A DNA stretch of 64,000 bases from assembly GCA_964356335.1 (NCBI GenBank), contig CAYHHI010000004.1:36699-100698 (forward strand), in the 5' to 3' direction. Below are positions 1-51,165 of the stretch, piece after piece (the first letter of the stretch is position 1; the number at the start of each line of letters is the position of its first letter). The notes below the pieces were generated by a model. The model saw only the letters and a program-made list of their open reading frames with translations. It searched no databases and was not told the DNA's origin. The position numbers and the translations under genes were made by a program. This DNA is from an uncultured bacterium (lineage in GTDB: Bacteria; Arandabacterota; Arandabacteria; Arandabacterales; Arandabacteraceae).

Positions 1-1051
1 CATCGGTCCACCACCACACGCGAGCAGGCTCATGGGAGACAAGGCAAGGGCCAGAGAAACCATGAAGAAACTCGGCCTTGATCCGATCCCCGGCTCCGAG
101 GGAACGCTCAAGAGCGCCGACGAAGCAGGCGAGGTGGCCTCGAAGATCGGTTACCCGGTGCTTCTTAAAGCGACAGCAGGAGGAGGAGGCAAGGGGATGC
201 GCGTGGCGAGGGAAGCCGGCGACCTCAAACATGCCTACGATGAGGCCTCGCTTGAAGCTGAGAAGGCCTTCGGGAATCCTTCGCTCTACCTGGAGAAGTT
301 CATCACGCGAGGCCGGCACATCGAGTTCCAGGTCCTTGCCGATGTTTTCGGCAATGCGGTCTATCTTGGCGAGCGGGAGTGCTCAATCCAGAGAAGTCAC
401 CAGAAGTTGATCGAAGAATCGCCGTCGCCTGTGATCACTGAGGACGTCCGGAGGGAATACGGGACCAAGGTGGCGAAAGCCGTCGCCGCGATCGGCTATG
501 TCAATGCAGGCACGATTGAGTTCCTGAGGGACGAAGACGGCAATCTCTACTTCATGGAAGTAAACGCAAGGCTCCAGGTGGAACACCCTGTGACCGAGAT
601 GGTAACCGGCTTTGACATCGTTAAAGAGCAGTTGAGAATTGCCGCAAACTGCCCCTTGAGCATAAAGCAGGAAGACGTCGAGCTCAGAGGCCACGCGATT
701 GAAACCAGGATAAATGCGGAGGATCCTGCGCGTGATTTTAGGCCGGACCCCGGGATGATCACTGCCTTCGAACCTCCCTCCTTCGATTCCGTGCGTGTCG
801 ACACGCACATAAGGCCCGGTTATGCGATCCCTCCCTTCTATGACTCGCTGATCTGTAAGCTGATAGGGCATGCGAACGACAGGAACGCAGCCATCGATAC
901 CGTCACGAGAGCACTCAAGAGTTTCCGAATAGAGGGCGTGAAGACAACGATCCCGCTCCATATCGAGATTCTGTCCACACCGGAATTCAGGCAAGGCAAT
1001 TACAGTACGAGCTTCGTGCAGGAGCTTTTGGCCAGAAGAACCGGCCAATAA
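1..1051 (+). CDS. biotin carboxylase (ATP-grasp subunit of a biotin-dependent acyl-CoA carboxylase); 5'-truncated by window edge
   Basis: Frame is open from nt 2 with no upstream stop, and about 110 N-terminal residues are missing. It carries ATP-grasp and biotin-carboxylase C-terminal motifs (GYPVLLKATAGGGGKGMRV, EVNARLQVEHPVTEMVTG). Carboxyltransferase and BCCP genes lie immediately downstream. Confidence 0.85.
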   Translation, partial: IGPPPHASRLMGDKARARETMKKLGLDPIPGSEGTLKSADEAGEVASKIGYPVLLKATAGGGGKGMRVAREAGDLKHAYDEASLEAEKAFGNPSLYLEKFITRGRHIEFQVLADVFGNAVYLGERECSIQRSHQKLIEESPSPVITEDVRREYGTKVAKAVAAIGYVNAGTIEFLRDEDGNLYFMEVNARLQVEHPVTEMVTGFDIVKEQLRIAANCPLSIKQEDVELRGHAIETRINAEDPARDFRPDPGMITAFEPPSFDSVRVDTHIRPGYAIPPFYDSLICKLIGHANDRNAAIDTVTRALKSFRIEGVKTTIPLHIEILSTPEFRQGNYSTSFVQELLARRTGQ

Positions 1052-1065
1052 GGAGATGAGGCATC

Positions 1066-2799
1066 ATGGCTAAAGTATTGCTCCAACCCATCGGCTCTTC
1101 ACTCGAGACCTTCATGAAGTCGGAAGCCTGCCGAGCCAATGCGGAAGCCATGGAAAAGATTGAGAGAGAGTTGCTTGCGAAGCGGGACGAGGTAAGGGCC
1201 GGTTGGGGAGATGAATACGTCGAGCGTGTGCACAAGAAAGGCAAGCTCACAACGTGGGAGCGCCTTGAGATCCTGAAGGACCCTGGAACCGAGGTGTTCC
1301 CTGTCGGAACCTTCGTCAATTATGGCCAGGAATTCGGTGAAGGCAACGACAAGAAGAAAAGCCCCGGGGCCGGCGTTGTCACGGCATTCGTGCGCGTGGA
1401 AGGCCGCTACACGATGGTCATCGCCAATGACAACACGGTGGCATCGGGTGCATGGTGGCCTCAGACACCTGAGAAGATAGAACGAGCTCAGCACATAGCC
1501 TTGAGGCTCCGGATTCCCGTGGTCTACCTCGTTGATTGCAGCGGCCTCTATCTGCCCGAACAAAGCAGGTCTTTCCCTGGACCCACGGGGGCAGGCTTCA
1601 TCTTCAAGATGAATAGTCTCTTGAGCGCCAACGGCGTCCCTCAGATTGCTGCGGTCTTCGGCGACTGTATTGCAGGCGGCGGCTATATGCCGATAATAAG
1701 CGACCGCGTTTACATGACCGAGCAGGCCTATATGGTGATCGCAGGGGCGGCCCTCATAAAGGGGGGCAAATCCCAGAACATAACCTCGCTCACCATAGGC
1801 GGCCCCGACATCCACGTCCATCTGTCGAATTGTGCGGATTTCAGAGGTCCGGATGACATATCTGTGCTGAAGATGATCCGGAAGGATGTGTCGCTCCTTC
1901 CTACGACAGGCGTCGAGTATTACAAGTATGATGGCGACACCAACGACCCCCTATATGACAGCCGCGAGCTCAAATGCATCTTCCCTTCCGACTACCGGAT
2001 GTCTTACGACACCAAGCAGGTGATCGCGCGAGTCGCTGACTCAAGCCTCTTCTGGGAACTCCTGCCGGGCAAAGGCGAGGAGATGATAATCGGGATTGCG
2101 AAGATTGGAGGCCTGTACGTCGGCATCATTGCCAACAACCAATTCTTGATTGGCCATCCTGAGTATCCCGACCAGAAGCGGCCTGGCGGCATCCTTTATC
2201 GCGAAGGCATCGCCAAGATCTCGCAGTTCTCACGGGCATGCAACGACGACGGCATCCCGATCGTCTGGCTTCAGGACATATCAGGCTTCGACATTGGTGC
2301 TGAGGCCGAGAAGGAAGGCCTTCTGGGATTCGGCTCCAACTTGATTTACACCAATTCGACTAACGCCGTGCCGATGATCACGGTGCTCCTGAGGAAATCA
2401 TCGGGCGCAGGCTACTACGCGATGGCAAGTAGTGCCTACGACCCGGTGGTTCAGCTTTCGACTCCGATCACAAGGCTCGCCGTGATGGAAGGGCGCACCC
2501 TGGCAATCGGTGCCTTCCGGACCAGGCTCGACGACAACTTCGAGATCATCGAGACAAACGAAGACGAAATCAAGAAGATCAAGCGAGGCATGCAGGAAGT
2601 CGAAGACAGGATAACGCGGGATATGGATCCTGTGAAGTCGGCGTCGATAAGGGACACCGACGAAGTTATCCTGATGCATGAGATAAGGCCGTATCTCAGA
2701 GCCATGGTTGAAATGTGCTACCAGGCAACCGGCTATCGCCGGATCAAGAACCCGAGAATATGGTCGATGCACGACCTCAACGTGTTGACGGATATTTGA
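1066..2799 (+). CDS. acyl-CoA carboxylase carboxyltransferase subunit (propionyl-/methylcrotonyl-CoA carboxylase beta-like)
   Basis: 577 aa. It has the carboxyl-transferase N-terminal signature [21 protein letters not shown] and oxyanion-type Gly motifs ([17 protein letters not shown]). It lies 15 nt after the biotin carboxylase. Confidence 0.85.
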
Positions 2800-2906
2800 G
2801 TGAGGCCGATCGCCAGACACATTAGGGATGCAAGTTGGAACGGCAGGCGGCCTCTCCGGACGGGGATCGAAAATGCCTAATCTGAAGGTTGGAGCCAGGG
2901 TGCGGT

Positions 2907-3548
2907 ATGGCAGGTAAAGATACAGACCTCGTGAGGTTGATTGGGGAACCCAAGACTTGCCTCGTCAGAGAGAGCACCGACCACAAAGGTGTCTATGAAG
3001 TCCTCTCCCCTGCCGTCGGCCTCTTCGACATGCCCCCTGCGGTCGGAACTTTTGTCCGCCCCGGATCTTTCGTCGGCTACCTCACCGTGATGAGGCGCTA
3101 TTACCATCTCATGATACCCGAGGGGCATCACGGTGTCGTGACCCATCTTCATCTTACCATGAGGAAGCAGCGCGTGGAATTCGGCCAACCGCTCTTTACG
3201 GTGAGCCCGGATGCCATGTCGGGCCTTGCGCTTGGACCAGAAAAAGCAGATGCTGCGTCCGTTGCCATGGACGATGGGATTCCTGAGGGCGCGTTCGGGA
3301 TCAAGTCTCCTACTGACGGGATCTTCTACCTGCGAGCCAATCCTCAATCGCCGGCATATGTCGAAGAAGGGGCGCTTGTGACGCAAGGTACGGTGCTGGC
3401 GCTGGTTGAAGTGATGAAGTGTTTCAACCCGATTGTCTATCCCGGCGAGCCTGAATTCCCGCCCCAAGCCCGAATTGCCAGGATCGTTTCCAAACACGCC
3501 ACCGAAGTCAAACACGGGGCGTTGCTCTTTGTTGTGGAGACGGCCTGA
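2907..3548 (+). CDS. biotin carboxyl carrier protein-like with tandem biotinyl/lipoyl-type domains
   Basis: The C-terminal domain has the biotinylation-type motif LVEVMKCFNPI (canonical E-A-M-K-M, with Lys present). The N-terminal half looks like a degenerate second biotinyl domain without the Lys (LTVMRRYYHL). The annotated start is the ATG at 2907 rather than the TTG at 2889. Confidence 0.6.
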   Translation: MAGKDTDLVRLIGEPKTCLVRESTDHKGVYEVLSPAVGLFDMPPAVGTFVRPGSFVGYLTVMRRYYHLMIPEGHHGVVTHLHLTMRKQRVEFGQPLFTVSPDAMSGLALGPEKADAASVAMDDGIPEGAFGIKSPTDGIFYLRANPQSPAYVEEGALVTQGTVLALVEVMKCFNPIVYPGEPEFPPQARIARIVSKHATEVKHGALLFVVETA

Positions 3549-4948: not shown

Positions 4949-4973
4949 GAAAGCGCAGCAGGTGGGCGCAATT

Positions 4974-6392: not shown

Positions 6393-6440
6393 AAAACCGC
6401 CTGCAGTCTAATCCTCTCGTACCTTCGAAGATCCGAGTCT

Positions 6441-7385
6441 CTACTTGAAGGTCTGAATCAGGCGCGAGACGTCCGGGACCTCGGGCCGGGTTGCAAGCAC
6501 CTTGCCCCGAAGAACGCGTTGGTCGAAAGTCGGCTTCTCAACTCGATAGAAGATCCCGATTGGGATTCGCTCGCCCTCGCCGTAGTTCCACTCCTTGGCT
6601 TTGAGGTGGGCGGCGTCCAGGCTGGAGGTGTCGTGCCCTTCGAGATCGTACACGCGGCTGTTATAGAACTGGTAGGTGTTGTAGAAGGTGAAGCAGGGCT
6701 GAAGCACATCGATGAAGGAGAAGCCCTTGTGCTTCACGGCTTGCACGATCAGATCGGCGAGCTCCTTGGCCTTGACCGAATAGCCCCTTGCGACGAAGGT
6801 CGCACCCGCCGATAGCATGAGTTCGATCGGATTCAGAGGTTCCTCGAAACTTCCTCTCGGTGTTGACCTGCCCGGAAAACCTAGAGGGCTCGTCGGTGTT
6901 GCCTGTCCAGTAGTCAGGCCATATACACGATTGTTGTGGACGATCATGGTGACATCTATATTGCGCTTGGCCGACATTATAAGATGGGCAAGCCCCTCGC
7001 CATAGGCGTCGCCATCGCCCGCATGTCCGATCACGGTGAGATTCCGGTTGGCGAGCTTTATCCCCGTGACCGTGGGGGGAACTCTCCCGTGAATCGAGTA
7101 GAAGGTGTTGACATTCACATAATCCACTATCTTGGCGTGGCAGCCAATGCCTGAGGCCAAGACGAGGCTTTCGGGGGGAAGCCCGCCGGCCACGAGCGAT
7201 TTGATGGCCTCATTGACTGCGGAAAGGATTCCAAAGTTACCACAGCCCTTGCACCAGGTGTTCTCGGCGTAAGTCCCGAGGTTCATCTGGTTCTGGGAGT
7301 TCGGTCGGTCAGCCGGAGCCGGCCCGCCGGGCTCGTTTGACGAATTCGCCCGGTTCGACTGATTCGCTTGGTTCGCAGTACTCAT
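6441..7385 (-). CDS. korB: 2-oxoacid:ferredoxin oxidoreductase beta subunit (TPP-binding, KorB/VorB-like)
   Basis: It has the WCKGCGNFG N-terminal motif and the TPP motif GHAGDGDAYGEG. Its ATG overlaps the korA stop (ATGA). It has an unusual Asn/Gln/Ser-rich 30-aa N-terminal extension. Confidence 0.8.
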   Translation of the reverse strand: MSTANQANQSNRANSSNEPGGPAPADRPNSQNQMNLGTYAENTWCKGCGNFGILSAVNEAIKSLVAGGLPPESLVLASGIGCHAKIVDYVNVNTFYSIHGRVPPTVTGIKLANRNLTVIGHAGDGDAYGEGLAHLIMSAKRNIDVTMIVHNNRVYGLTTGQATPTSPLGFPGRSTPRGSFEEPLNPIELMLSAGATFVARGYSVKAKELADLIVQAVKHKGFSFIDVLQPCFTFYNTYQFYNSRVYDLEGHDTSSLDAAHLKAKEWNYGEGERIPIGIFYRVEKPTFDQRVLRGKVLATRPEVPDVSRLIQTFK

Positions 7386-9034
7386 CTCGCCACCTCCCCC
7401 ACTCGCTTCCGCAGATCATCAATGGTGAACGGCCTCCCATCATATTTCAGGATGGTCTTATGGACCTTGATACCGTGGCAACCCAGTAGTCTCGAAAGGC
7501 AGCCCGTGGCATTATTCTCAACGCCGATGAGCTTCGTCACACCTTCAAGGGCCCGTCCGAGGTGATCCCCGGGGAAGGGTTCGAGTATAACGGGCTGAAC
7601 CACGCGCAGGCCAAGATCTTCGCCTATCTCAGTACAGGCTCCCTTGGTTGATCCCCATGTGACAAGCGCCGTCGGAGATTTCTTATCACCATAAACCTTG
7701 ACCGCTTCAACTTTGGCCATGTCTCGCAGGATGTACTCATACTTGCCCAATCTCTTGTCCTGCATCTCCACTGTCTTCTCTGCCTCTTCAGTGGTTATGC
7801 CATACTCGTCATGCTCGTAGCTGTTGCCCTTGACGACGGCTCCCTTCGTACCCGGGAAAGCCAGGGGAGAGACACCACCAGGGGTCCTCTCGTACCTCCT
7901 GTACTGGCCCCTGCCGTCCCACAGGGGGGGGTCTTCCCTTCTGACCTCATCGCCTCTCTTTTCGAAGCTAAAAGTGCTCTCGCTGAGATTCTTATCGGAG
8001 ATCACGAAGGCGGGAATCTGGTATTTCCAGGCCATATTCATGGCGAGTCCCGTGAGATAGAAAGCCTGGTCCGGGTCCCCAGGCGCCACCGCGAATCTCA
8101 CAAACTCGCCGTGACCGGCATTCAGGATGAAGAAGAGATCGCTCTGACACGTATAGGTCGGCAGCCCCGTGCTTGGGCCCGGTCTCTGGCCGACCACGAA
8201 GACCGCAGGAGATTCACTCTGGGCAGCCAGGCTCAGGCCCTCCACCATGAGGGCAAAGCCCCCGCCTGCGGTCCCCACCATGGTCCGTGCGCCGGCATAA
8301 GCCCCCCCAATCGCAGTTATGACCGCGGCGATTTCATTCTCAGGATGATAGGTGACGATGCCCAGCTCCTCCTCGTTCGCCGCAAGGAAGTGAAGAATGC
8401 TCGACGACGGAGTCATGGGATAAGATATGTAGAGATTGAGGCCCGCTCTCACGGCCCCAAGGGCAATCGCCTCGTTGCCACCGATCAGGGGCAGGGACTT
8501 GGATGAAAGCCGCTCAACATGAAGGCGCCCTTCTCCTGCCTGATCGTATGAGGCCTGCGCGATCTTGAGATTCAGATCGGTCTGCTTGGCGACTTCTGCC
8601 CTGATAATAGCCTGGACAGTGTCCCAGGCTATCCCCAGAGCCTTGGCTATCGCGCCGAGGGCAGCCAGGTTCCGCATGATGGGCTTGCCACCTGCCTGCT
8701 TGACCATGCTCGTGAGCGGGAGCCCCAGCCCATCTGCCTTGCAAGCGTCGGAATCATAGATCACAAGCCCACCTGGTTTGAGCCTCCACTTATGCTTCTC
8801 AACAGTGGTTTGATTGAGCGCTACAAGCAGATTGACATCGCTGGTGTGGGCGCCGATCTTGCGGTCGCTTGCCCTTATGATGCTGAAGTTGTGACCACCC
8901 CGAATCAACGAGGGATAGTCATCCCAGAAGTAGATGCGATAGCCAAGCGAACTGAAGAGGTGAGCGATAAGGCTGCCGACCTGTCTTATGCCGTCTCCTG
9001 CCTGTCCACCTATCAGAACCGAGTACTCCGGCAT
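7382..9034 (-). CDS. korA: 2-oxoacid:ferredoxin oxidoreductase alpha subunit (KorA/VorA-like)
   Basis: It has the YSVLIGGQAGDG and GNEAIALGAVRAGLNLYISYPMTPSS motifs. The ATG at 9034 has GGGAGG 5 nt upstream; the track ORF start at 9055 is a TTG inside the SD. Confidence 0.8.
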   Translation of the reverse strand: MPEYSVLIGGQAGDGIRQVGSLIAHLFSSLGYRIYFWDDYPSLIRGGHNFSIIRASDRKIGAHTSDVNLLVALNQTTVEKHKWRLKPGGLVIYDSDACKADGLGLPLTSMVKQAGGKPIMRNLAALGAIAKALGIAWDTVQAIIRAEVAKQTDLNLKIAQASYDQAGEGRLHVERLSSKSLPLIGGNEAIALGAVRAGLNLYISYPMTPSSSILHFLAANEEELGIVTYHPENEIAAVITAIGGAYAGARTMVGTAGGGFALMVEGLSLAAQSESPAVFVVGQRPGPSTGLPTYTCQSDLFFILNAGHGEFVRFAVAPGDPDQAFYLTGLAMNMAWKYQIPAFVISDKNLSESTFSFEKRGDEVRREDPPLWDGRGQYRRYERTPGGVSPLAFPGTKGAVVKGNSYEHDEYGITTEEAEKTVEMQDKRLGKYEYILRDMAKVEAVKVYGDKKSPTALVTWGSTKGACTEIGEDLGLRVVQPVILEPFPGDHLGRALEGVTKLIGVENNATGCLSRLLGCHGIKVHKTILKYDGRPFTIDDLRKRVGEVAR

Positions 9035-9140
9035 CACAGCCTCCCTATTTGGCAACCTGTGCCAAGTGCCATGCCGCCGCCTGGCTCAATCTTTTCAGAC
9101 TCGTCAAGGATTCCTGGCAAGCGCTATCTTCGCGTGCCTG

Positions 9141-9626
9141 CTATATCTTCTCTACTTCAGCAATTATCTCCTTTATATCAGGAACCTGCTTGATCGGATA
9201 GATCTTCTTGAAGCGGACCGTTCCCTTGGGATCAAGCACGAAAACTGCGCGCTCGCTGAAGCCGTCAGCATCTCTGAAGATGCCGAACCTGACAGCGACG
9301 CCACCGTGCAGCCAAAAGTCACTCAAGAGTCGAGTCCTTGTTATTCCCAGGTGCTCTGCCCAGGCCTTCTTGCAGGGAGCGCTGTCAACACTCAGCCCGA
9401 AGGCCACGGCACCGAGCTCCTCAAACTGCGGGGCGCTCGCCTCCAGATCCTTCATCTGCTGAGCGCAGACTGGCGTCCAGGCAAGCGGGTGGAATCCCAG
9501 GACGATCTTCTTCCCTCTCATCTCGCTCAACTTGAGTTCTTTGCCCTGATGATCCCTGAGGGTGAAATCTGGAGCGACCTCGCCAATCTCGATTGCCTCA
9601 CCAATCTTCGTTTCCTTCTCGTCCAT
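9141..9626 (-). CDS. peroxiredoxin (AhpC/TSA family, Bcp/PrxQ-like)
   Basis: It has the peroxidatic Cys motif LGFHPLAWTPVCAQQ. The ATG at 9626 has AAAGGAG 7 nt upstream. Confidence 0.8.
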   Translation of the reverse strand: MDEKETKIGEAIEIGEVAPDFTLRDHQGKELKLSEMRGKKIVLGFHPLAWTPVCAQQMKDLEASAPQFEELGAVAFGLSVDSAPCKKAWAEHLGITRTRLLSDFWLHGGVAVRFGIFRDADGFSERAVFVLDPKGTVRFKKIYPIKQVPDIKEIIAEVEKI

Positions 9627-9738
9627 GCATTTTCTCCTTTCATGATTTAAGGCGCGTGTCAATTAGATGCAGATATCGGTCTAAGCGTTGCAGCCCAGTA
9701 TATCAGTATTGCTTGTCGGATTCAGTTCTAGCTCAATC

Positions 9739-10539
9739 TTATGGCGACCAGGGTTTCACCCACTTGGGCTTTCGCTTCTCGAGGAAAGCGGCCATGCCCT
9801 CCTGGGCTTCCTCACCGCATCTAAGATCGGCTATCACATGAGCCGTATATTCACCTGCGTCGGCGAGAGGCATCGATGACACGCGGCTCAGGAGTTCCTT
9901 GCTCACACCCAACGCATGTGGGCCGCTCGTGAGGAGGTTTGAGATTTTCTCGTTTACCCTGGCGTCGAGATTGTCCTGGGTGACGACATCATTCACAAGG
10001 CCAAGTGTCTTGGCCTGATCTGCTGAGATTCTCTCGCCCGTCAGGAAGAGATCACGGCAGGCCGCCTCGCCAATCCTTTTGACGAGATACGGACCGATGC
10101 AGGCGGGAACAAGCCCTATCTTGACTTCACTCAGGCTGAATTCGGCCCGATGGGAGGCGATGACGATATCACAGGCCGCCACAAGACCATTGCTTCCACC
10201 TATTGAGGCGCCGTTGACCCGGGCGATAGTGGGCTTCGGGAGGTTGTAAAGCATATACATGAGCTCGGCAAGCCGCATCGCATCCTTGTAGTTGTCCTCA
10301 ACGGTGTAGTCCTTCATCTTCTTCATCCAGTTGAGGTCCGCACCCGAGCAGAAAGATGCACCGTTTCCCGTAAGCACCATCACCCGGATGGAATCATCCT
10401 TGCCGATCCCATCGAGAATCTGGATGAGATCCTCGATCATCACCTCATTGAAGGCATTCCTCACGTCGGGTCGGTTGAGAGCCACCCTCGCGATTCTGTC
10501 ACGAATGCTTACTTCCACGGTCTCGTATGATCTCGTCAC
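9739..10539 (-). CDS. enoyl-CoA hydratase/isomerase (crotonase) family protein; possible 3-methylglutaconyl-CoA hydratase
   Basis: It has the crotonase oxyanion motifs VMVLTGNGASFCSGADL and NGASIGGSNGLVAACDI. The likely GTG start at 10539 has AAGGGAGG 5 nt upstream. Confidence 0.8.
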   Translation of the reverse strand: MTRSYETVEVSIRDRIARVALNRPDVRNAFNEVMIEDLIQILDGIGKDDSIRVMVLTGNGASFCSGADLNWMKKMKDYTVEDNYKDAMRLAELMYMLYNLPKPTIARVNGASIGGSNGLVAACDIVIASHRAEFSLSEVKIGLVPACIGPYLVKRIGEAACRDLFLTGERISADQAKTLGLVNDVVTQDNLDARVNEKISNLLTSGPHALGVSKELLSRVSSMPLADAGEYTAHVIADLRCGEEAQEGMAAFLEKRKPKWVKPWSP

Positions 10540-10612
10540 CTCGTTCCTCCCTTTAGCCCAGCAAAACCACGGATGCATCCCCTTCTTCAGGTTCTACCGA
10601 AGGGCTGCAGGT

Positions 10613-11008
10613 TCACCTCACAGGCACGGCCTTATACCCGTAACAGAGTATGCCGGCATCGCCTTCTTCCTTCACTTTCCTGAATTCTATCTTGACGGGC
10701 ATGCCAATCTTGAGATCTTCCGGCGCGCAGTCCACAATCTGGCACTGCATGGGCACCCCACCCTCGAGCTCGATGATCCCTATGGCATACGGGACCTCAT
10801 CCACAAAATCCTTGGGCGCCACCCGTATCACCGTAAAGGTCTGGACCTTGCCCGTCTCGGCGAGTCTCACCGGCTCGAAATCGCGCGCCCGGCACGCAGG
10901 GCAGATCAGTCTTGGAGGAAACCAGACCTTGCCGCACCCCTTGCATTTTGACGCTTCAAGCCTGTAACGTTGCGGTATCTCTCTCCAGTATCTGGCCGAT
11001 GTTGACAT
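10613..11008 (-). CDS. DUF35 OB-fold/zinc-ribbon protein (thiolase/HMG-CoA synthase partner)
   Basis: 131 aa. It has a rubredoxin-like CKGCGKVWFPPRLICPAC motif followed by an OB-fold. Its start is directly adjacent to the thiolase stop. Confidence 0.7.
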   Translation of the reverse strand: MSTSARYWREIPQRYRLEASKCKGCGKVWFPPRLICPACRARDFEPVRLAETGKVQTFTVIRVAPKDFVDEVPYAIGIIELEGGVPMQCQIVDCAPEDLKIGMPVKIEFRKVKEEGDAGILCYGYKAVPVR

Positions 11009-12166
11009 CTATGCTACCTCCAATATGTGAACGATTGAGCTCGCACCAGTGCCGCCCATGTTCTGGGTGAGACCTCGCTTGGCACCCTTTACCTGCCGCT
11101 CGCCCGACTCGCCCCAGAGCTGAGCCGTGATCTCGCAGATCTGCGCCACACCGGTGGCTCCTACGGGATGCCCCTTCGATTTGAGGCCGCCGCTGGTGTT
11201 GATTGGAATTCTGCCGCCGATGGCGGTCTCGCCTGCCTCAGTTGCCGGGCCGCCTTTGCCGGGCTCGACAAGGCCAAGCGCCTCGATCGCGAGAATCTCG
11301 GCAATTGTGAAGCAGTCATGCACCTCAGCGAGATGAATGTCGGAGGGTTTGACGCCGGCCATCTTGTAAGCCTTCTGGGCGGCTATCTCCGCTGCCGCCA
11401 GATGGGTGATGTCTTTCCGCTGGTGAAGCGCGATCGTGTCAGTAGCATGGCCCGACGCGGCCACTCTGACGATGGGCCGCTTCGAGATCTTCTTCGCCAT
11501 TTCGAGCGGGCACAGAACGACCGCCGCCGCGCCATCCGTAATCGGAGAGCAATCAAGGATGGTCAGAGGATCGGCGACCTTGACGGCTCCGATCACCTGG
11601 TCCACTGTTATCTTCATGCGGTACTGCGCATGCGGGTTCTTCAAGCCGTTATCATGGTTCTTGACGGAGACCTGCGCCAACTGCTTCCGCGTGGTCCCGT
11701 ATTTGTGCATGTGGGCCCGCGCCATCATCGCATAGAGGCCTGGGAAAGTGACACCATTGTAAACCTCGTATTCCTGGTCGGCTGCCGTGGCGAGGGCATA
11801 GGTTGCCCCTGCGCCGTCGATGTCTGTCATCTTCTCCACACCGCCGACCAGCACGATGTCACTGATGCCTGAGGCAACTTCGATGAAACCCTGCCGGAAG
11901 GCCGCGCCACCCGAGGCACAAGCGGATTCCACTCTTGTTCCCGGAATGGGGCCCATTCCGAGGTAGTCAGCAAGAAGCGCACCCAGGTGTTCCTGCCCAA
12001 CGAAAAGCCCCGAACTCATGCAACCCACGTACATGGAGTCGATCCGGTCAACCCCTGCGTCTTTGACGGCGTTGAGGGCAGCCTCGACAAACACCGCGCG
12101 CAAGGATTTCTCCCAGAGCTCGCCCCACTTGATTAAGCCAACACCAATAACCGCCACATCTCTCAT
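11009..12166 (-). CDS. thiolase (acetyl-CoA acetyltransferase, SCP-x/archaeal-type)
   Basis: 385 aa with a thiolase fold. It has a Cys in SGLFVGQEH and a C-terminal GHPVGATG...NMGGTGASS. Confidence 0.8.
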
Positions 12167-12344
12167 GATTCATGCTCCTCAGTTTCGCTTGTCTCTCCCA
12201 TGGTTGATGCCCCTTCGAAAACCGGCAGTTCCTTATTCACTGACGCCTATTCGATTGCTGCGCCCCTGGGTCGCAGCGCAGAGATTCACATCTTTTCGGC
12301 TGATCCTCAATTGAGTGTTCATATGACCTGGGGCCGTTCCAGCG

Positions 12345-13391
12345 TCACTCTGCCTTTCTTATCTTCCTTCTGAACTTGGCGTAAGTTCCGTAGTCCAGAT
12401 AGGCCTTGTTCTTGTCAAGGTAGTCTGTGGTCTTCGGAGCAAGATTCTGGACGGCACCTATGCGATCCGTGACACGATATATGAAGGCATCGCTCCCCGC
12501 TCCCGAGCCATAGGACACCATGATGATTCGCTGGCCGGGCTTTGCGACGTCCAGGATAGCCGTGAGCCCGATGGGCGAAGAGCCCGAGTAAGTGTTGCCG
12601 AGCCGCGGGCAGAGAAGCCCCGTCTCGATCTGCTCGGGCTTAAAGCCCAGCTCCTTGCCTACCTGCGACGGAAACTTGCCGTTGGGTTGATGGAAAACTG
12701 CATAATCGAAATCGCCGGGCTTGGCCCCGGCCATTTTCATTATCGCCGTTGCGGCACCCTTCACATGTTTGAAGTATGAAGGCTCACCGGTGAACCGGCC
12801 TGCGTGCCTCGGATAATGCATGTACTCGCGGCGCCAGAAGTCAGGCGTGTCCGTCATGAAGGAGCAGGTATGCTCGACCTCGGCGACCGTGCCATCGCGG
12901 CCGAAAATGAAGGCAGCCGCGCCTGCCGCGGCAGAATACTCGAGGGCATCACCCGGAGCGCCCTGCGAAGTATCGGCGCCGATGGCAAGCCCGTAGTCCA
13001 TCTTGTGTGCCTCGACAAGGCCGAGCACCACGAACATACCCTCCGAGCCTGCCTTGCAAGCGAATTCGAAGTCAGCACAGTGAATGTCGGGCGTTGCGCC
13101 GATTGCCTCAGCGACGACCGTCCCGCTTGGCTTCACAGCGTACGGATGGGACTCCGAGCCGATGTAGATGGCTCCGATTTTCCTGGGATCGATTCGGGCC
13201 CTCTTGAGGGCGTTCCTCGCAGCCTCGACCGACATCGAGATGACGTCCTGGTCAGGCGCGGGAACAGATTTCTCCTCAAGCTTGAGACCCCGCTTGTAGC
13301 TTGGTGCGTCTGCGCCCCAGACCTTGGCGATCTCTTCAACCTTGATTCTGTATCGTGGGGCATATGCGCCGTAACCCACAATTCCTGCCAT
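12345..13391 (-). CDS. hydroxymethylglutaryl-CoA synthase, archaeal-type (~350 aa)
   Basis: It starts [12 protein letters not shown], has the active-site Cys in [12 protein letters not shown] and a His in [18 protein letters not shown] lies upstream. Confidence 0.8.
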
Positions 13392-13473
13392 GCCTACCTC
13401 CCATGTGTCAGAGCACAGTGATGGCTCGTGGTTTGACTCATAGAGCTCACGTCAAAACCTATCCGTGGCGGGT

Positions 13474-15309
13474 ATGTCAACCCTTGAAAGTTATCACGAG
13501 CCGTGCCCTCTGTCAATCCGAAACAGGTCGACTTCTGTGGGCTTTATTTGCTTGACCGCCCTGCCGGAATGGCCTATCTATTTTGCGATGGCTATAGCGC
13601 TCTATGCACTGACGCTGCTTTCGCTCGCCTGGCTCTTTTTCTTTCTCTGCGGGAGGCGAATTCACAAGATCTGGCTTATCCTGCTGGGACTCTCTCCGGT
13701 GGTCCTTATCTATGTCTTGAATCCCGAGTTAAGGGTCTATTCCTTCCACAGCTTCATGCATGCGGGGATCGTCTATCAGATCCTGCAGGGCAACATCCCT
13801 CCCCCCGATCCCCTCCTGGCCGGCCATGCGGCGGCTTATCCGTGGGGAGCACATATGATTGCCGCAGGCATCAGCAGACTCTTCAATGTCACCCCGTTCT
13901 TTTCGATCGCTGCCATGAACGTTGCGTCGCTTTGCCTTGTCATGATCCTCGTCTACAAGATATCGAAGATGCTCATAGATGATGAGAGAGCAAACATCCT
14001 CTCCGTACTGGTTTCAGTCTATGGGGTAACCGTCACCAATCCCTATTTCATGCGGCTCCTGGGAGGCAGCACCCCGACTGAGTTCCGAGGCGTTCCGATA
14101 CTTCTTAAATTCATAACCATTAACCTCCTGCCGATCGGCTTGGTTTTCTTCCTGCTCTTCATCTACTCTGTACTGAGGCTTGAGCGCACCGGCCGCGCCT
14201 TACCGAGTGTGCCCCTGCTCCTTTTCTCCTTACTCGGTATGGGATTCACCTATCCGGCATTTCTCCCGGGAGCGGGAGCGAGCCTGGTGCTCGCGTGGAT
14301 TGCAAGTCTGGTGTTTTTCAGGTATGAGACCCTCAGGTGGAATCTGAGAACCCTCGCCTTCACGGTTTTCACCCTCATCGCCGCAATCCTCGTGGTCAAG
14401 CCCTACCTGGCGCTCACCGGCACAGGCACCGTAAGCCAGATGCAGATTCTTTCAAAGCAAGCCGTGGTCAGTAACATCATCAAATACCTTGTCGTCGCAA
14501 TACCGATTCTTATCGTAATCCTCTTAAGCGTGCGCGCCTTCAAGCAAGTTAACCTTAAAGCTCTCCTCTTTCTGGTGATCGTCATCGTTTCAACCATGGC
14601 AGGCTACGTCGCCATCCACCTCCCAATGGACAATGAGTACAAGCTCCTTCTACTTTCGACCGTAACCCTGGGGATACTCGGTGGCGTGGCCTTCGGCGAG
14701 ATGGCAAGACGGCTCGCCGGCTACAGGATGATCGGCGTTTTCATCCTGCTTGCCCTCTTCCTCTTCCCTACTTTCCGATTCGTGAAGCTAAAACTCATTC
14801 AGGAGCGAGCCGGCCGGCCCTCACAGGCATTTGTGGAAAAGGGCAGGAGTATCCGCTCTGCCGATGGCGAAACCGACGAGTTCTACCAGTGGATCAAGAA
14901 GAACACCGACAGGCGGAGCGCCTTCATTGACCAGGAGCTCGAAATCCCCGTGCTGGCTGAGAGGCCGCTCTTCATCGGAATCGGAGGGCGTGAACCCGGA
15001 CAACGGAAAGGCTTCGGGCCGGTCGATTTGATCCTCAGGTTTCAGAGCGGCTACCCCCCCGACCTCCTGGACATGCGGAGGAGAATCGTAGAGAAGATCT
15101 ATGCGGCCAATCAGCAGTTGTCCGAGCAAGAGCTCGACGAGCTTCTCTCTTTGCCTGGCGACATCTATGTTGTCTTGCGAACAAAGGTACAGGCCGGGAA
15201 TCTCGACAATGCCGCATTCAGGGAGGTATTCGCATCGCAAGCGGGCAGATTCAAGCTCTATCAACTGAAGCGCCCGGCAGTGACCCGCGAGGCTTATCCT
15301 ACCGAGTGA
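13474..15309 (+). CDS. polytopic integral membrane protein with C-terminal soluble domain (possible GT-C-type glycosyltransferase/polymerase)
   Basis: It has at least 12 hydrophobic segments, then a roughly 170-aa hydrophilic C-terminal domain ending FKLYQLKRP. That ending resembles the C-terminus of the 53458..55413 protein. The start is uncertain (GTG 13465 / ATG 13474 / ATG 13588). Confidence 0.45.
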   Translation: MSTLESYHEPCPLSIRNRSTSVGFICLTALPEWPIYFAMAIALYALTLLSLAWLFFFLCGRRIHKIWLILLGLSPVVLIYVLNPELRVYSFHSFMHAGIVYQILQGNIPPPDPLLAGHAAAYPWGAHMIAAGISRLFNVTPFFSIAAMNVASLCLVMILVYKISKMLIDDERANILSVLVSVYGVTVTNPYFMRLLGGSTPTEFRGVPILLKFITINLLPIGLVFFLLFIYSVLRLERTGRALPSVPLLLFSLLGMGFTYPAFLPGAGASLVLAWIASLVFFRYETLRWNLRTLAFTVFTLIAAILVVKPYLALTGTGTVSQMQILSKQAVVSNIIKYLVVAIPILIVILLSVRAFKQVNLKALLFLVIVIVSTMAGYVAIHLPMDNEYKLLLLSTVTLGILGGVAFGEMARRLAGYRMIGVFILLALFLFPTFRFVKLKLIQERAGRPSQAFVEKGRSIRSADGETDEFYQWIKKNTDRRSAFIDQELEIPVLAERPLFIGIGGREPGQRKGFGPVDLILRFQSGYPPDLLDMRRRIVEKIYAANQQLSEQELDELLSLPGDIYVVLRTKVQAGNLDNAAFREVFASQAGRFKLYQLKRPAVTREAYPTE

Positions 15310-15343
15310 AGCACAAGACCTCCTGCACGTTCTGACGGACTCC

Positions 15344-15371
15344 TTTTACATCTTTTTACAATCGTTTTACA
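15344..15371 (+). promoter_or_regulatory. three TTTTACA direct repeats at 10-11 bp spacing upstream of the 15431 operon
   Basis: TTTTACA occurs at 15344, 15354 and 15365. The repeats lie 60-90 nt upstream of the ATG at 15431, with TATAGT at 15403-15408 and a strong SD GGAGGTG. Confidence 0.4.
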
Positions 15372-15430
15372 CCCCCGTGACAACTCTTCTTGCGCTCGCG
15401 GGTATAGTCATAGTGAAGGAGGTGATCGAG

Positions 15431-16486
15431 ATGACCAGGATCATCGGTTTTCTCATGGCAGTGATTGGCGCGGTCTCGCTGGCTGCTGCCACGTATGACG
15501 AGGCAACCGCAGCGACTGGCGACGAAGTGGCGGACCTCATTGAAACCCTTGAGGTCGGTGAGCCGGTGTACTATGAGAATCTTGCGATCATTCCCATATA
15601 CACCGCTCGCACGAGCGACCACTCGCGCTACACCACCCTCGATGAGGCACTGGACAACAAGTGGCTCGAGATCACAGAGGTGGAGGGTGGACGAGTGCCA
15701 CAGGTGAAGGTGACCAATCGTTCGGACAGGTACATCTACCTCATGGGAGGCGAGATTCTCACCGGGTGCAGGCAGGACAGGATCGTCGGCAGGGATGTCT
15801 TGCTGGGGCCGAAGAGCAGGGATGTCATAGTCCCCGTCTACTGCGTCGAGCAAGGCAGATGGACGTACGAATCAGACAGGTTCTACAGCAAGAAGAACCT
15901 GGGGACTTTCAGGCTTCGCGCGGAGAGCCAGAAAGCCGGGAGCGATGCCCAGACCAACATCTGGGGGGAAGTCGCAGATCTGAGCGAACGAGCCGGTGCG
16001 TCTTCGGGTACGAGCAGATTCCAGGCTGTCTTCGAATCGGAGGCGGCAAAGCGCAGGATCGACTCCCTCGAGGGTAGGATCGGCGACATCCCGAGGCTTT
16101 ATCCAGACGCTATCGGTGTGGTGGTCGGCGTCGCAGGCGAGATCACGAGCGTGGACATCTTCGCCAACCCGTCGCTCTTCAGCCGTCTTTGGCCAAAACT
16201 CCTCAGGTCTTCGGCGCTTGCTGCCTTCAGCCGCGACGGCAACGGATCCACAACTCAGAGCGATGCCGCCAGATTCCTGCGCAGATTGCATGACAAACAG
16301 TACACGCAGAAACCTGCCATCGAACTGGGCTTTGAGCTCTCCGCGGTGGATCATGAGGTAAACGCAAACGCTCTCGTTTACAGCAATGCAGTGATTCATT
16401 TGGCCGGATTCCCTGAGGAATTGCTGAAGTCTGGCGAAAAGCCCGGCGACCATGAGCGCAGAATCCCTGTGATGAGGCGTCCGTAA
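15431..16486 (+). CDS. secreted hypothetical protein (signal peptide; no recognisable family)
   Basis: The ATG at 15431 has GAAGGAGGTG 6 nt upstream. The N-terminus MTRIIGFLMAVIGAVSLAAA is a signal peptide. It has conserved-looking N-terminal motifs PVYYENLAIIPIY and PVYCVEQGRW. It is the first gene of a co-directional four-gene block. Confidence 0.6.
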   Translation: MTRIIGFLMAVIGAVSLAAATYDEATAATGDEVADLIETLEVGEPVYYENLAIIPIYTARTSDHSRYTTLDEALDNKWLEITEVEGGRVPQVKVTNRSDRYIYLMGGEILTGCRQDRIVGRDVLLGPKSRDVIVPVYCVEQGRWTYESDRFYSKKNLGTFRLRAESQKAGSDAQTNIWGEVADLSERAGASSGTSRFQAVFESEAAKRRIDSLEGRIGDIPRLYPDAIGVVVGVAGEITSVDIFANPSLFSRLWPKLLRSSALAAFSRDGNGSTTQSDAARFLRRLHDKQYTQKPAIELGFELSAVDHEVNANALVYSNAVIHLAGFPEELLKSGEKPGDHERRIPVMRRP

Positions 16487-16499
16487 ACGGAGGGGGTGC

Positions 16500-20766: not shown

Positions 20767-20792
20767 CCTTTCCTTGGAAGGCACCCGGAGGA

Positions 20793-20812
20793 CCTATCAT
20801 CAGGATGATAGG
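20793..20812. terminator. 8-bp perfect hairpin between convergent genes (possible bidirectional terminator)
   Basis: CCTATCAT-cagg-ATGATAGG lies between the RR stop (20766) and the M14 stop (20858). No clear U-tract follows. Confidence 0.3.
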
Positions 20813-20857
20813 CTAGCCGGCGCCAGTGCTCACGAGCCCGTATTTCTATGGCAGTGC

Positions 20858-40631: not shown

Positions 40632-40632
40632 G

Positions 40633-50940: not shown

Positions 50941-51165
50941 GGTCCAAACCCTCCGATGCGAAACTCGTTGCTGGCCAGTCTCCTGACTGACCATAGTACC
51001 CAAAGGGAAATCACTTGTTGTCGGACAGGTTCTTTCCCCACGCGGCAAACGGAAAATCGGAGGTACTTAAATCACTACAGCGTGTCTCCGTCTCACCCCC
51101 TTCCTTCAGCGAAGATCGCTGCAACCTTCAATCCACAATTGACACAATCACCCTACATCCGCCTA

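Follow-up and report, generated by a model that had tools for sequence, protein, structure and literature searches.

The window analysed here, a 64-kb stretch of DNA, encodes a trio of proteins that by sequence is the set used by archaea for making HMG-CoA, here in a bacterium: an archaeal-type HMG-CoA synthase (HMGCS), an SCP2-type acetoacetyl-CoA thiolase and a DUF35 scaffold protein. Both here and in hundreds of other uncultured bacteria, the trio lies beside enzymes of the leucine-breakdown type and not beside mevalonate genes; its most likely role is therefore to connect acetyl-CoA with branched five-carbon acids. In the literature, we found no description of a link between the trio and leucine-breakdown-type enzymes.

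Identity of the trio and its host

The open reading frames (ORFs) of the trio and the adjacent crotonase occupy positions 9739-13391 on the minus strand, with exactly the boundaries listed here together with the neighbouring genes.

1..1051, plus strand: biotin carboxylase (BC; ATP-grasp; accC models), 5′ end cut by the window edge
1066..2799, plus strand: acyl-CoA carboxyltransferase (CT), 577 aa, gamma-carboxylating MCC/GcdA clade (PF01039)
2889..3548, plus strand: biotin carboxyl carrier-like protein (BCCP-like), 219 aa, with an extra N-terminal region (Biotin_lipoyl domain)
3614-4948, plus strand: class-III aminotransferase (Aminotran_3)
4929-6392, plus strand: CoA-acylating aldehyde dehydrogenase (NF047625)
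6441..7385, minus strand: 2-oxoacid:ferredoxin oxidoreductase (OFOR) beta subunit (TIGR02177; TPP_enzyme_C and PFO_beta_C domains)
7382..9055, minus strand: OFOR alpha subunit, fused gamma-alpha (TIGR03710)
9141..9662, minus strand: peroxiredoxin-like protein (weak matches to NCBIfam peroxiredoxin models)
9739..10578, minus strand: crotonase of the methylglutaconyl-/carboxygeranoyl-CoA hydratase (LiuC/AtuE-like) type (PF00378)
10613..11008, minus strand: DUF35 scaffold protein (zinc ribbon and OB fold), 131 aa (PF12172 and PF01796)
11009..12166, minus strand: SCP2-type acetoacetyl-CoA thiolase, 385 aa (PRK06064; 6ESQ chain A match)
12167..12344, minus strand: HMGCS/thiolase spacer, 178 nt (sequence reading)
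12345..13391, minus strand: archaeal-type HMGCS, 348 aa (TIGR00748; 6ESQ chain I match)

Profile HMM searches revealed that the HMGCS scored 552.6 bits against TIGR00748 (HMG_CoA_syn_Arc, cut-off 353) and 551.5 bits against PRK04262 (cut-off 244), as opposed to just 114 bits against the bacterial MvaS model TIGR01835 (cut-off 360) and about 72 bits against the FabH models; its top PDB match was 6ESQ chain I (460 bits, 62% identity; PhlA, 214 bits). The thiolase matched Thiolase_N and Thiolase_C_1, scored 552 bits against PRK06064 (cut-off 420) and 564 bits against the Methanothermococcus thiolase equivalog NF053570, which is under the cut-off of 600, and had 6ESQ chain A as its top PDB match (393 bits, 51% identity). 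For the DUF35 protein, PF12172 and PF01796 were both over cut-off, and the top PDB match was 6ESQ chain E (122 bits, 45% identity; PhlB, 74 bits). Neither of the findings that the earlier note had named as contradicting its assignment, a clustering with KAS-III/chalcone-synthase-like enzymes or a missing DUF35 domain, was obtained.

To form HMG-CoA, the archaeal complex requires an E-C-H-N tetrad and the His of HDxF (PMC12960953). Alignment with E82/C114/H238/N270 of that study placed the tetrad at E80, C112, H234 and N266 of the HMGCS; the thiolase kept C-A-S, H-D-C-F and G-H-P-V-G-A-T-G (CxS/HDxF/GHx), and the DUF35 protein its four zinc cysteines (CKGC...CPAC). Of 65 sequences from the bacterial clade, 64-65 kept the tetrad and all 65 kept HDxF. 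The three proteins are predicted to form a complex. Their genes, which had been described as consecutive without gaps, are so in part: the DUF35 start abuts the thiolase stop (with 34 nt between DUF35 and the crotonase), whereas 178 nt separate HMGCS from the thiolase. This spacer holds a short GC hairpin (GCTGCG-N9-CGCAGC) without a T-run, a scan of it found no terminator or promoter-like site, and the corresponding spacers of relatives are about 10-30 nt.

The host is a bacterium, as the window also encodes ClpB, OmpR/PhoB-type two-component systems, a sigma-54 activator and T9SS-tailed proteins, and the nearest named homologues were in Candidatus Eisenbacteria MAGs. The observation of an archaeal-type trio with a crotonase in a bacterium was thus confirmed, but its implied rarity was overstated: the trio genes are common and already annotated, with close homologues in more than 594 bacterial species-level genomes (a lower bound) and homologues named HMG-CoA synthase by public pipelines. 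Bacterial trios numbered 1,030 in a 2026 paper, which left most of them without an assigned function.

Neighbouring genes and their linkage across related loci

The crotonase scored 195 bits against PF00378, and its top NCBIfam models were PRK05674 (gamma-carboxygeranoyl-CoA hydratase, 266 bits) and PRK07468 (262 bits), both under cut-off, as was every named NCBIfam model. Because relatives run to 258-265 aa and the ORF to 279 aa, the true start is probably located about 15 codons downstream of the ORF start. Of the two catalytic Glu positions, the first is Gly in this family and the second is retained as Glu, within S-E-V-K. Positions 1-3548, attributed in the earlier note to a biotin carboxylase, proved to hold the edge-cut BC, the 577-aa CT and the BCCP-like protein. 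The BC aligned with positions 113-447 of the accC profile; full-length BCs of relatives are 451-469 aa and lie directly upstream of the CT. The window CT scored 342 bits against PF01039 and matched GcdA (1PIX) over its full length with 266 bits and MCC-beta with 241 bits. It is presumed from sequence to be a (methyl)crotonyl-CoA carboxylase beta subunit, and many homologues are named "3-methylcrotonyl-CoA carboxylase beta subunit" by JGI. The BCCP-like protein, whose homologues in relatives occupy the same place and measure 209-212 aa, has weak BCCP model matches, a Biotin_lipoyl domain at residues 138-214 and a candidate biotinyl-lysine motif, E-V-M-K-C.

The OFOR alpha subunit scored 537 bits against TIGR03710 (cut-off 483), with the Sulfolobus broad-specificity OFOR 5B48 (245 bits) and the Magnetococcus enzyme 6N2N (237 bits) as top PDB matches; the beta subunit, overlapping alpha by 4 nt, scored 296 bits against TIGR02177 (cut-off 262). 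The nearest solved relatives use pyruvate or 2-oxoglutarate, and the OFOR position is conserved in relatives. Between crotonase and oxidoreductase, the peroxiredoxin-like protein has a conserved position in the Eisenbacteria-type cluster, where relatives carry AhpC-TSA/Redoxin domains. The aldehyde dehydrogenase (604 bits against the SauS-like NF047625, cut-off 600) and the aminotransferase form a pair specific to this genome; since the pair is absent there in the closest relatives, it probably lies outside the core module. In three related loci (L002, L087 and L088), the BCCP and OFOR beta genes had TrmO or nothing between them.

The thiolase followed HMGCS in 67 of the 68 related genome loci with enough sequence, far more often than chance would give. 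Among the 43 loci with at least 4.5 kb downstream, 29 had the trio followed by CT, crotonase and BC (liuB-liuC-liuD order), 26 of them with co-directional CT-ECH-BC(-BCCP), and 11 (about a quarter) had the trio alone, with no carboxylase genes nearby. In the 26 loci, crotonase orthologues with 46-59% identity lie between MCC-beta and BC. This common operon has as its CT a true MCC-beta (720-743 bits to MCC structures versus 461 to geranyl-CoA carboxylase and about 285 to PCC), and the window CT, only 33-36% identical to it, is not its orthologue. The window-type order, trio-ECH-Prx-OFOR convergent with BC-CT-BCCP, was found again in L001, L002, L009/L087 and L088, and variants of the Eisenbacteria-type arrangement occurred in Planctomycetota (L063) and Myxococcia-labelled (L058) MAGs. 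Elsewhere, the trio had neighbours of catabolic type: 1) a Glu/Leu/Phe/Val-dehydrogenase-family protein and an acetate-kinase-family protein, 2) acyl-CoA dehydrogenase, 3-hydroxyacyl-CoA dehydrogenase and thiolase II, and 3) an AtuA-family protein and, separating HMGCS from thiolase, a gene for BioY. By our reading of their sequences, the acyl-CoA dehydrogenases near the trio of some relatives resemble short-chain types and not IVD.

Six-frame motif scans of 1.25 Mb of loci and the window found no HMG-CoA reductase (HMGR), HMG-CoA lyase or GHMP-kinase motif, and none of the 86 loci had an HMGR or GHMP-kinase motif within about 10 kb of the trio. In the window, Pfam/NCBIfam searches of non-antisense ORFs of at least 150 aa, together with the motif scans, found no HMGR (as had been noted before), mevalonate kinase or HMG-CoA lyase. 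These absences apply to the 64-kb window and the 20-kb loci, and HMGR or lyase may be encoded elsewhere in the genomes. Isovaleryl-CoA dehydrogenase, MvaS-type synthase, AibA/B, AibC and a sodium-pumping GcdB-type subunit were not found in the window either, nor PKS or NRPS genes near the trio. Since the trio is linked to CT, crotonase and BC in 29 of 43 loci and no reductase, lyase or kinase motif accompanies it, the module looks like a bridge between acetyl-CoA, HMG-CoA, 3-methylglutaconyl-CoA and 3-methylcrotonyl-CoA rather than a mevalonate entry.

Possible roles of the module

We tentatively favour the reading that a Liu-type (leucine/isovalerate-utilisation-like) module with net catabolic flow has the trio at one of its ends, where it would replace HMG-CoA lyase; in Pseudomonas liu clusters, the lyase gene liuE adjoins liuBCD. 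The biotin-dependent carboxylase (BC, 577-aa CT and BCCP) would convert 3-methylcrotonyl-CoA to 3-methylglutaconyl-CoA, the crotonase would hydrate this to HMG-CoA, and the trio would link HMG-CoA to acetyl-CoA, the complex interconverting three acetyl-CoA and HMG-CoA via channelled acetoacetyl-CoA. The co-transcribed OFOR may supply acyl-CoA, for example isovaleryl-CoA from 2-oxoisocaproate. In the catabolic direction, HMG-CoA and two CoA would yield three acetyl-CoA, all three C2 units being kept as thioesters, and the unfavourable synthase reversal could be pulled by the strongly favourable thiolysis within the channelling complex. By analogy, citrate synthase, a mechanistically similar "irreversible" synthase, runs backwards in the reversed oxidative TCA cycle. 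We infer the substrates of carboxylase, crotonase and oxidoreductase and, above all, the direction of flux. Against this reading, the HMG-CoA synthase reaction is considered irreversible under physiological conditions, and in the literature we found no report that it runs backwards in vivo. Also counting against it are the decarboxylase subunit GcdA as top structural relative of the window CT, the crotonase scores below named-model cut-offs, the pyruvate/2-oxoglutarate enzymes related to the OFOR, the lack of a window isovaleryl-CoA dehydrogenase and the quarter of loci with no carboxylase near the trio.

The same enzymes could run anabolically, an idea that we consider unlikely but worth keeping in view: acetyl-CoA would pass via HMG-CoA to 3-methylglutaconyl-CoA (crotonase as dehydratase), 3-methylcrotonyl-CoA (biotin enzyme decarboxylating) and isovaleryl-CoA, which would prime the synthesis of iso-branched fatty acids or be turned into leucine by the oxidoreductase and a transamination. 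Each step is thermodynamically easy or has precedent, and the trio would run forward; LiuC is a dehydratase in Myxococcus, iso-C15 lipids abound in many operon-bearing phyla (Acidobacteriota, Ignavibacteria, Myxococcota and others), and the similarity of the CT to GcdA, the adjacent OFOR and, in this genome, an aminotransferase would all fit. However, an ATP-grasp BC is there in every case, a sign of carboxylation and not of decarboxylation; no AibA/B-like CoA-transferase-family decarboxylase, AibC-type reductase or FabH was found in the window or in annotated neighbour clusters of related loci; in other phyla, the trio has catabolic-type neighbours; and the window aminotransferase is class III, not of the branched-chain type, and missing from relatives. 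The myxobacterial-type route of the earlier note may still apply, though its defining parts, MvaS-type synthase, AibA/B and AibC, are missing from the window. A mevalonate entry, in which three acetyl-CoA give HMG-CoA for an HMGR and lower pathway encoded elsewhere, yielding isoprenoid precursors, with carboxylase and crotonase feeding leucine carbon into the same HMG-CoA pool, appears doubtful. The 0/86 count gave no support to this proposal, the conserved partners are MCC-type carboxylase and hydratase genes, and the HMGCS fails the MvaS model. The mevalonate pathways known from bacteria rely on MvaS-type synthases, and the phyla in question are generally taken to use the MEP pathway. On the other side, HMGR missing from the window and the 20-kb loci is no proof of genome-wide absence, in trypanosomatids leucine carbon is documented to reach sterols via HMG-CoA (PMC5993337), and mevalonate entry is the one function that experiments have shown for a complex so composed and with these motifs intact (PMC12960953; 6ESQ matches).

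An accidental neighbourhood, with no functional relation between the trio and the crotonase/carboxylase genes, is very improbable. The 11 loci with the trio alone, and the window carboxylase genes lying several kilobases off on the opposite strand, would agree with it, but linkage in MAGs of at least eight phylum-level groups and in two gene orders is unexpected without selection. It is still harder to credit that the trio, like PhlACB or MucABC, acetylates another acceptor and makes no HMG-CoA. All characterised bacterial HMGS/ACAT/DUF35 complexes are of this kind or inactive as synthases (PMC12960953), and PhlA, PhlB and PhlC are detectable homologues; the Phl/Muc enzymes, however, have lost the tetrad and/or HDxF, both intact here and conserved clade-wide, archaeal-chain scores are about twice the Phl-chain scores, and PKS/NRPS genes are lacking nearby. 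Overall, the functional reading of the earlier note is partly supported; its leucine/HMG-CoA hub linked to the biotin carboxylase gained strong comparative support, with trio, CT, crotonase and BC co-operonic or adjacent across many phyla.

Comparison with known systems

The Pseudomonas Liu (leucine/isovalerate utilisation) cluster is liuRABCDE. Relatives of the window share with it the liuB-liuC-liuD order of carboxyltransferase, crotonase and biotin carboxylase, with a true MCC-beta, and the window has the same three functions nearby. They differ in that no locus has a liuE motif, the HMGCS trio being there instead, and that separate BC and BCCP proteins take the place of a single alpha subunit; the window, moreover, has a divergent GcdA/MCC-like CT and no isovaleryl-CoA dehydrogenase. 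The alternative isovaleryl-CoA (Aib) pathway of Myxococcus xanthus comprises MvaS, LiuC, AibA/B and AibC. Here too, an HMG-CoA synthase and a methylglutaconyl-CoA hydratase/dehydratase-type crotonase occur together outside isoprenoid synthesis, but the window synthase is archaeal-type with thiolase and DUF35, and a biotin-dependent carboxylase is found instead of AibA/B and AibC. The glutaconyl-CoA decarboxylase subunit GcdA (PDB 1PIX, 3GF3), the top solved relative of the window CT, is of similar length with a full-length alignment, and both fall within the clade of enzymes that act on the gamma-carboxyl group of glutaconyl-type CoA esters; the score is just 266 bits, however, and the window partners are an ATP-grasp BC and a soluble BCCP-like protein.

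The Methanothermococcus complex 6ESQ (work of 2018, as cited in PMC12960953) has the same three subunits in one gene cluster; the top solved relative of each window protein is the matching chain, and E-C-H-N, CxS, HDxF, GHx and the four zinc cysteines are all present. The window complex, predicted from genes, differs in its bacterial host, in identity (62/51/45%) and in its partners, an MCC-type carboxylase, an MGH-type crotonase and OFOR in place of a mevalonate context. The PhlACB/MucABC Friedel-Crafts acyltransferases and the P. fluorescens ACAT/HMGS-DUF35 complex are likewise bacterial trios of homologous subunits (PMC12960953; PMC6392133); they have lost the tetrad and/or HDxF and make no HMG-CoA, whereas the window trio keeps both motifs.

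Gene layout and identity of the trio

The genes studied lie in a tight run on the minus strand (window 6441-13391), with a second group on the plus strand. The features are as follows:

12345-13391, minus strand: HMG-CoA synthase (HMGCS), 348 aa (TIGR00748, PRK04262)
11009-12166, minus strand: thiolase (PRK06064)
10613-11008, minus strand: DUF35 protein (PF12172 and PF01796)
9739-10578, minus strand: crotonase, a member of ECH_1
9141-9662, minus strand: peroxiredoxin-like protein
7382-9055 and 6441-7385, minus strand: two-subunit 2-oxoacid:ferredoxin oxidoreductase (OFOR)
3614-6392, plus strand: class-III aminotransferase, then a CoA-acylating aldehyde dehydrogenase, after the BCCP gene
1-3548, plus strand: biotin carboxylase (BC, truncated at the window edge), 577-aa carboxyltransferase (CT) and biotin carboxyl carrier-like protein (BCCP)

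The span assigned to the trio (HMGCS, thiolase and DUF35 protein) and the crotonase in the earlier note, 9739-13391, matched the gene calls exactly. The trio genes are adjacent and in the same orientation in the window, and likewise in 67 of 68 related loci. They had been described as lying without gaps, which is right for the thiolase and DUF35 genes; the sole descriptive error concerned the HMGCS and thiolase genes, which are separated by 178 nt (12167-12344). This spacer is unusually long, being about 10-30 nt in relatives, and holds a small GC hairpin (GCTGCG-N9-CGCAGC) without a T-run; the region may serve in mRNA processing or stability, or be left over from an insertion. Promoter and terminator scans over 6200-13700 returned sites no commoner than in shuffled sequences, none of them inside the spacer.

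Profile searches gave HMGCS a score of 552.6 bits with TIGR00748, the archaeal HMGCS equivalog (cut-off, 353), and 551.5 bits with PRK04262 (cut-off, 244). The earlier note had considered that the 348-aa protein might group with KAS-III-like enzymes, but FabH models gave only about 72 bits; with the bacterial MvaS model TIGR01835, the score of 114 bits was under the cut-off of 360. The thiolase passed PRK06064 (552 bits; cut-off, 420) and narrowly missed the strict equivalog NF053570 (564 bits; cut-off, 600), and the small protein matched both DUF35 domains, PF12172 and PF01796, as had been proposed. The best solved relatives were the corresponding chains of 6ESQ, the thiolase/HMGCS/DUF35 complex of Methanothermococcus thermolithotrophicus, with 460 bits and 62% identity for HMGCS (chain I), 393 bits and 51% for the thiolase (chain A) and 122 bits and 45% for DUF35 (chain E), whereas the PhlA, PhlC and PhlB chains scored roughly half of these values.

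Alignment placed the HMGCS tetrad E80, C112, H234 and N266 against E82, C114, H238 and N270 (positions according to PMC12960953). The thiolase, aligned with 6ESQ chain A, has the motifs C-A-S (CxS), H-D-C-F (HDxF) and G-H-P-V-G-A-T-G (GHx), and the zinc ribbon cysteines of the DUF35 protein are present as CKGC...CPAC. Of the 65 sequences from related bacterial loci, 64-65 have the E-C-H-N tetrad motifs and all have HDxF. By every sequence criterion testable, the trio is thus a member of the archaeal complex family, and profile scores, 6ESQ matches and motifs bear out the claim of an archaeal-type trio in a bacterium. That the host is bacterial is indicated by genes in the window for ClpB, OmpR-type regulators, a sigma-54 activator and proteins with type IX secretion (T9SS) tails; cluster mates of the window proteins are named Candidatus Eisenbacteria.

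A 2026 study found that the E-C-H-N tetrad of the synthase and the HDxF histidine of the thiolase are required for HMG-CoA formation, that these residues are lost in the characterised bacterial trios PhlACB, MucABC and the P. fluorescens complex, and that all bacterial trios characterised to date are without synthase activity (PMC12960953). Since both tetrad and HDxF are intact in the window, its trio does not belong to the PhlACB/MucABC-type acyltransferases, and this assignment was rejected.

Several other features were observed around the trio. Divergent from the HMGCS gene are three plus-strand genes (13465-17855), coding for a 614-aa protein without a Pfam or NCBIfam match, an ARPP-1 domain protein (15377-16486; PF20208, 242 bits) and a VWA-domain protein (16500-17855); a histidine kinase/response regulator pair comes next (17927-20766). 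ARPP-1 was defined as a family by comparative genomics of conflict or signalling systems. On the minus strand, a second class-III aminotransferase (40633-41967) forms an apparent operon (39169-41967) with a DUF4438 protein (39708-40652) and an HD-domain protein (39169-39858). Also on the minus strand are large secreted peptidases or proteins of no assigned function with a C-terminal FlgD_ig/Por_Secre_tail of type IX secretion (20858-23083, 26957-29461 and 47623-51048), i.e. an M14 carboxypeptidase, an M28 peptidase with BNR repeats and a 1141-aa protein; these T9SS-tailed peptidases are consistent with an FCB-superphylum-like proteolytic lifestyle. The aldehyde dehydrogenase of the 3614-6392 pair narrowly passed the SauS model for acylating sulfoacetaldehyde dehydrogenase (604 bits; cut-off, 600). 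The pair is missing at the same position in the closest relatives (loci L002, L087 and L088) and was treated as a separate insertion; the window lineage may have gained with it a module for taurine, beta-alanine or omega-amines. In L087, from the close relative GCA_029933125.1, cas2 and cas1 are located about 1.2 kb past the HMGCS gene (20534-21734), whereas no cas genes were found at the corresponding position in the window.

Distribution and gene neighbourhoods

A protein search with HMGCS gave 8,000 matches at E≤1e-20; the best 120 of these were all 74-93% identical, with names including Eisenbacteria, Planctomycetota, Zixibacteria and Acidobacteriota, many already annotated as hydroxymethylglutaryl-CoA synthase. 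A scan of one genome per species returned at least 600 stretches, of which at least 594 were confirmed. The best 80 of them were all from bacterial MAGs (68-92% identity), labelled, among others, Eisenbacteria, Zixibacteria, Aminicenantes and other Acidobacteriota, Planctomycetota, Ignavibacteria/Chlorobiota, Calditrichota, Coatesbacteria and Glassbacteria. Recent transfer from archaea is unlikely: the GC content of the cluster (0.56-0.58) matches that of the rest of the window, and the close homologues are all bacterial (68-93% identity). The clade is an established bacterial one. The trio is very common, and that of the window is an ordinary member of an operon variant. The published survey counted 1,030 bacterial HMGS/ACAT/DUF35 clusters, of which 1,001 had no secondary-metabolism neighbours and were given no function (PMC12960953).

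To describe the neighbourhoods, the window proteins were mapped onto 86 related loci, limited to 10-kb flanks. The thiolase gene follows the synthase gene in 67 of the 68 loci with sufficient sequence. Among the 43 genome loci with at least 4.5 kb past DUF35, CT, an orthologue of the crotonase (46-59% identity) and BC were found downstream in 29; of the other 14, three had a partial set and 11 none, one of the latter (L037) carrying all three upstream. The single-strand order HMGCS-thiolase-DUF35-CT-crotonase-BC(-BCCP) was seen in 26 loci. Closed MAG chromosomes with the operon are CP070825.1 (Aminicenantes) and OY969724.1 and CP070742.1 (Zixibacteria); in CP070744.1 (Phycisphaerales), the 21-kb locus has HMGCS and thiolase but no carboxylase genes were found in it. 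The window has a second arrangement, in which DUF35 is followed by crotonase, peroxiredoxin and OFOR, while the divergent 577-aa CT, BC and BCCP are convergent to them; this layout recurs in other Eisenbacteria contigs and is rearranged in a Planctomycetota-labelled locus (L063) and a Myxococcia-labelled one (L058). The link to the biotin carboxylase at 1-3548, put forward earlier as a leucine/HMG-CoA hub, is supported as gene linkage (29 of 43 loci).

Recurrent neighbours elsewhere are acyl-CoA dehydrogenase (near the operon in nine related loci), 3-hydroxyacyl-CoA dehydrogenase, thiolase II, a methylmalonyl-CoA-mutase-family protein, Glu/Leu/Phe/Val-dehydrogenase-family and acetate-kinase-family proteins, family-III CoA-transferase and an AtuA-family protein; they look catabolic in flavour. 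It was also noticed that, in one MAG (L083, 4865-5452), HMGCS and thiolase are separated by the gene of a BioY biotin transporter (PF02632, 135 bits), a further tie of the trio to biotin-dependent chemistry. Chlorobiota/Ignavibacteriales MAGs without carboxylase genes beside the trio have the AtuA-family protein (cluster c37) nearby; its gene directly adjoins the trio in two loci (L076, L078), and in L086 it lies about 6 kb downstream. The L076 protein (9692-11518) matched PF07287 (acyclic terpene utilisation, 504 bits) and the AtuA ferredoxin-like domain. To our knowledge, AtuA has no known biochemical function.

The crotonase, the carboxylase and the lyase

The crotonase clearly belongs to ECH_1, and its best named models were the AtuE/LiuC-like PRK05674 (gamma-carboxygeranoyl-CoA hydratase) and PRK07468, both under cut-off; its orthologues occupy the liuC position, flanked by CT and BC, in the 26 loci. 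In this family (window and orthologues, 34 loci), the site that holds the first catalytic Glu in classical enoyl-CoA hydratases is Gly (G-G-G/S-x-G-L/F), and only the second Glu, in S-E-V-K, is kept, a single-Glu pattern which we take to be that of AtuE-type hydratases.

The window CT is a divergent member of the clade of methylcrotonyl-CoA carboxylase (MCC) and glutaconyl-CoA decarboxylase (GcdA), and its automated name at JGI is MCC beta. The CT of the operon common in relatives is unmistakably MCC-beta, with 720-743 bits against MCC structures, compared with 461 bits for geranyl-CoA carboxylase and about 285 for propionyl-CoA carboxylases. BC matched accC models and the BCCP-like protein has a Biotin_lipoyl domain, with full-length versions in relatives.

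The window and 1.25 Mb of loci were scanned for DAMGxN (HMG-CoA reductase), the GHMP-kinase motif and, in reading frames of fitting length, DTxGxxxP (HMG-CoA lyase). None of the three motifs was found in either, and the window had no HMGL-like Pfam match, i.e. no candidate for LiuE.

Direction of the module and comparison with known systems

Taken together, the genes probably form a module connecting 3-methylcrotonyl-CoA and acetyl-CoA with HMG-CoA as shared intermediate. In it, the carboxylase would interconvert 3-methylcrotonyl-CoA and 3-methylglutaconyl-CoA, the crotonase 3-methylglutaconyl-CoA and HMG-CoA, and the trio HMG-CoA and acetyl-CoA. The three metabolic readings proposed earlier (supply of mevalonate, supply of isovaleryl-CoA via 3-methylglutaconyl-CoA, and a leucine/HMG-CoA hub) are each compatible with some version of such a module.

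As to direction, we tentatively favour catabolic flow, in which the trio would stand in for the HMG-CoA lyase missing from the window and loci, because the ATP-grasp BC is always present, as expected for carboxylation, the genes are arranged as in liuBCD but without the lyase, the accessory neighbours are degradative, and one operon for three successive steps is a simpler account than two converging supplies of an intermediate with its consumer elsewhere. The energetics are plausible: the condensation by the thiolase is highly endergonic and the reaction of the synthase highly exergonic, which leaves a modest sum, so that in a channelling complex thiolysis could draw the synthase in reverse. 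A precedent is citrate synthase, also an "irreversible" synthase and of the same chemistry, which runs backwards in the reversed oxidative TCA cycle. However, a literature search of incomplete coverage found no report of in vivo reversal of HMG-CoA synthase. Also counting against catabolic flow, the window CT resembles a decarboxylase subunit as much as a carboxylase subunit (GcdA, 266 bits over full length; MCC-beta, 241 bits), the solved relatives of the OFOR prefer pyruvate or 2-oxoglutarate, no isovaleryl-CoA dehydrogenase (LiuA) is near the trio, the window being without any acyl-CoA dehydrogenase in Pfam/NCBIfam-type domain scans, and the leucine/HMG-CoA bridge of T. brucei is one-way, toward HMG-CoA (PMC5993337). 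A broader proposal, conceivable but doubtful, is that the trio runs backwards across many phyla of uncultured and mostly anaerobic bacteria (Eisenbacteria, Zixibacteria, Aminicenantes/Acidobacteriota, Ignavibacteria, Planctomycetota and others), where it would replace the lyase by cleaving HMG-CoA with CoA and conserving the thioesters, in parallel to reversed citrate synthase. It would end leucine/isovalerate, and perhaps acyclic-terpene, catabolism with three acetyl-CoA, as opposed to acetyl-CoA and free acetoacetate.

An Aib-like anabolic route, as in Myxococcus, would share HMG-CoA and 3-methylglutaconyl-CoA with the proposed module and appears rather unlikely; the window synthase is not of the MvaS type used in the Aib pathway, and the window has no CoA-transferase-family gene for AibA/AibB decarboxylase and no MDR-reductase gene for AibC. 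Mevalonate entry with leucine salvage, for which the trio has the residues required to form HMG-CoA, is unlikely: HMG-CoA reductase, as the earlier note correctly stated, is missing from the window by Pfam/NCBIfam, and DAMGxN occurs neither there nor in the 86 loci; mevalonate kinase, downstream GHMP kinases, decarboxylase and IPK had no Pfam match in the window, and the loci gave no GHMP motif. Neofunctionalisation or chance adjacency has little probability beside the conserved catalytic residues and the recurrent gene order.

The trio itself is not new, as public pipelines annotate it and bacterial clusters have been counted. In literature searches, whose incomplete coverage gives no proof of novelty, no paper was found tying bacterial HMGS/ACAT/DUF35 trios to MCC or leucine metabolism, and queries on the operon and on HMG-CoA in these phyla gave nothing pertinent. 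The words leucine, carboxylase and methylglutaconyl are absent from the 2026 survey (PMC12960953), and the analysis of Hoshino & Gaucher (2018) took in only organisms having three or more enzymes of the mevalonate pathway, which places these genomes outside its scope. What is described here is a large bacterial clade with all catalytic residues, linked across phyla to MCC and a methylglutaconyl-CoA hydratase-type crotonase; what makes it of interest is chiefly an operon shared across phyla, together with a testable question of flux direction. If the link is functional, it would give the widespread "archaeal" complex a role in bacteria independent of isoprenoid synthesis, advise caution against counting trio genes as evidence of a mevalonate pathway in MAG annotation, and raise the question of whether thiolase coupling lets HMG-CoA synthase run in reverse.

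The order CT-crotonase-BC is that of liuB-liuC-liuD in Pseudomonas leucine catabolism. Compared with this Liu cluster, the surrounding module is similar, except that it is without the lyase and, in the window, without isovaleryl-CoA dehydrogenase, both of which define Liu. The myxobacterial Aib pathway is similar only in that it, too, pairs a methylglutaconyl-CoA (de)hydratase with an HMG-CoA synthase.
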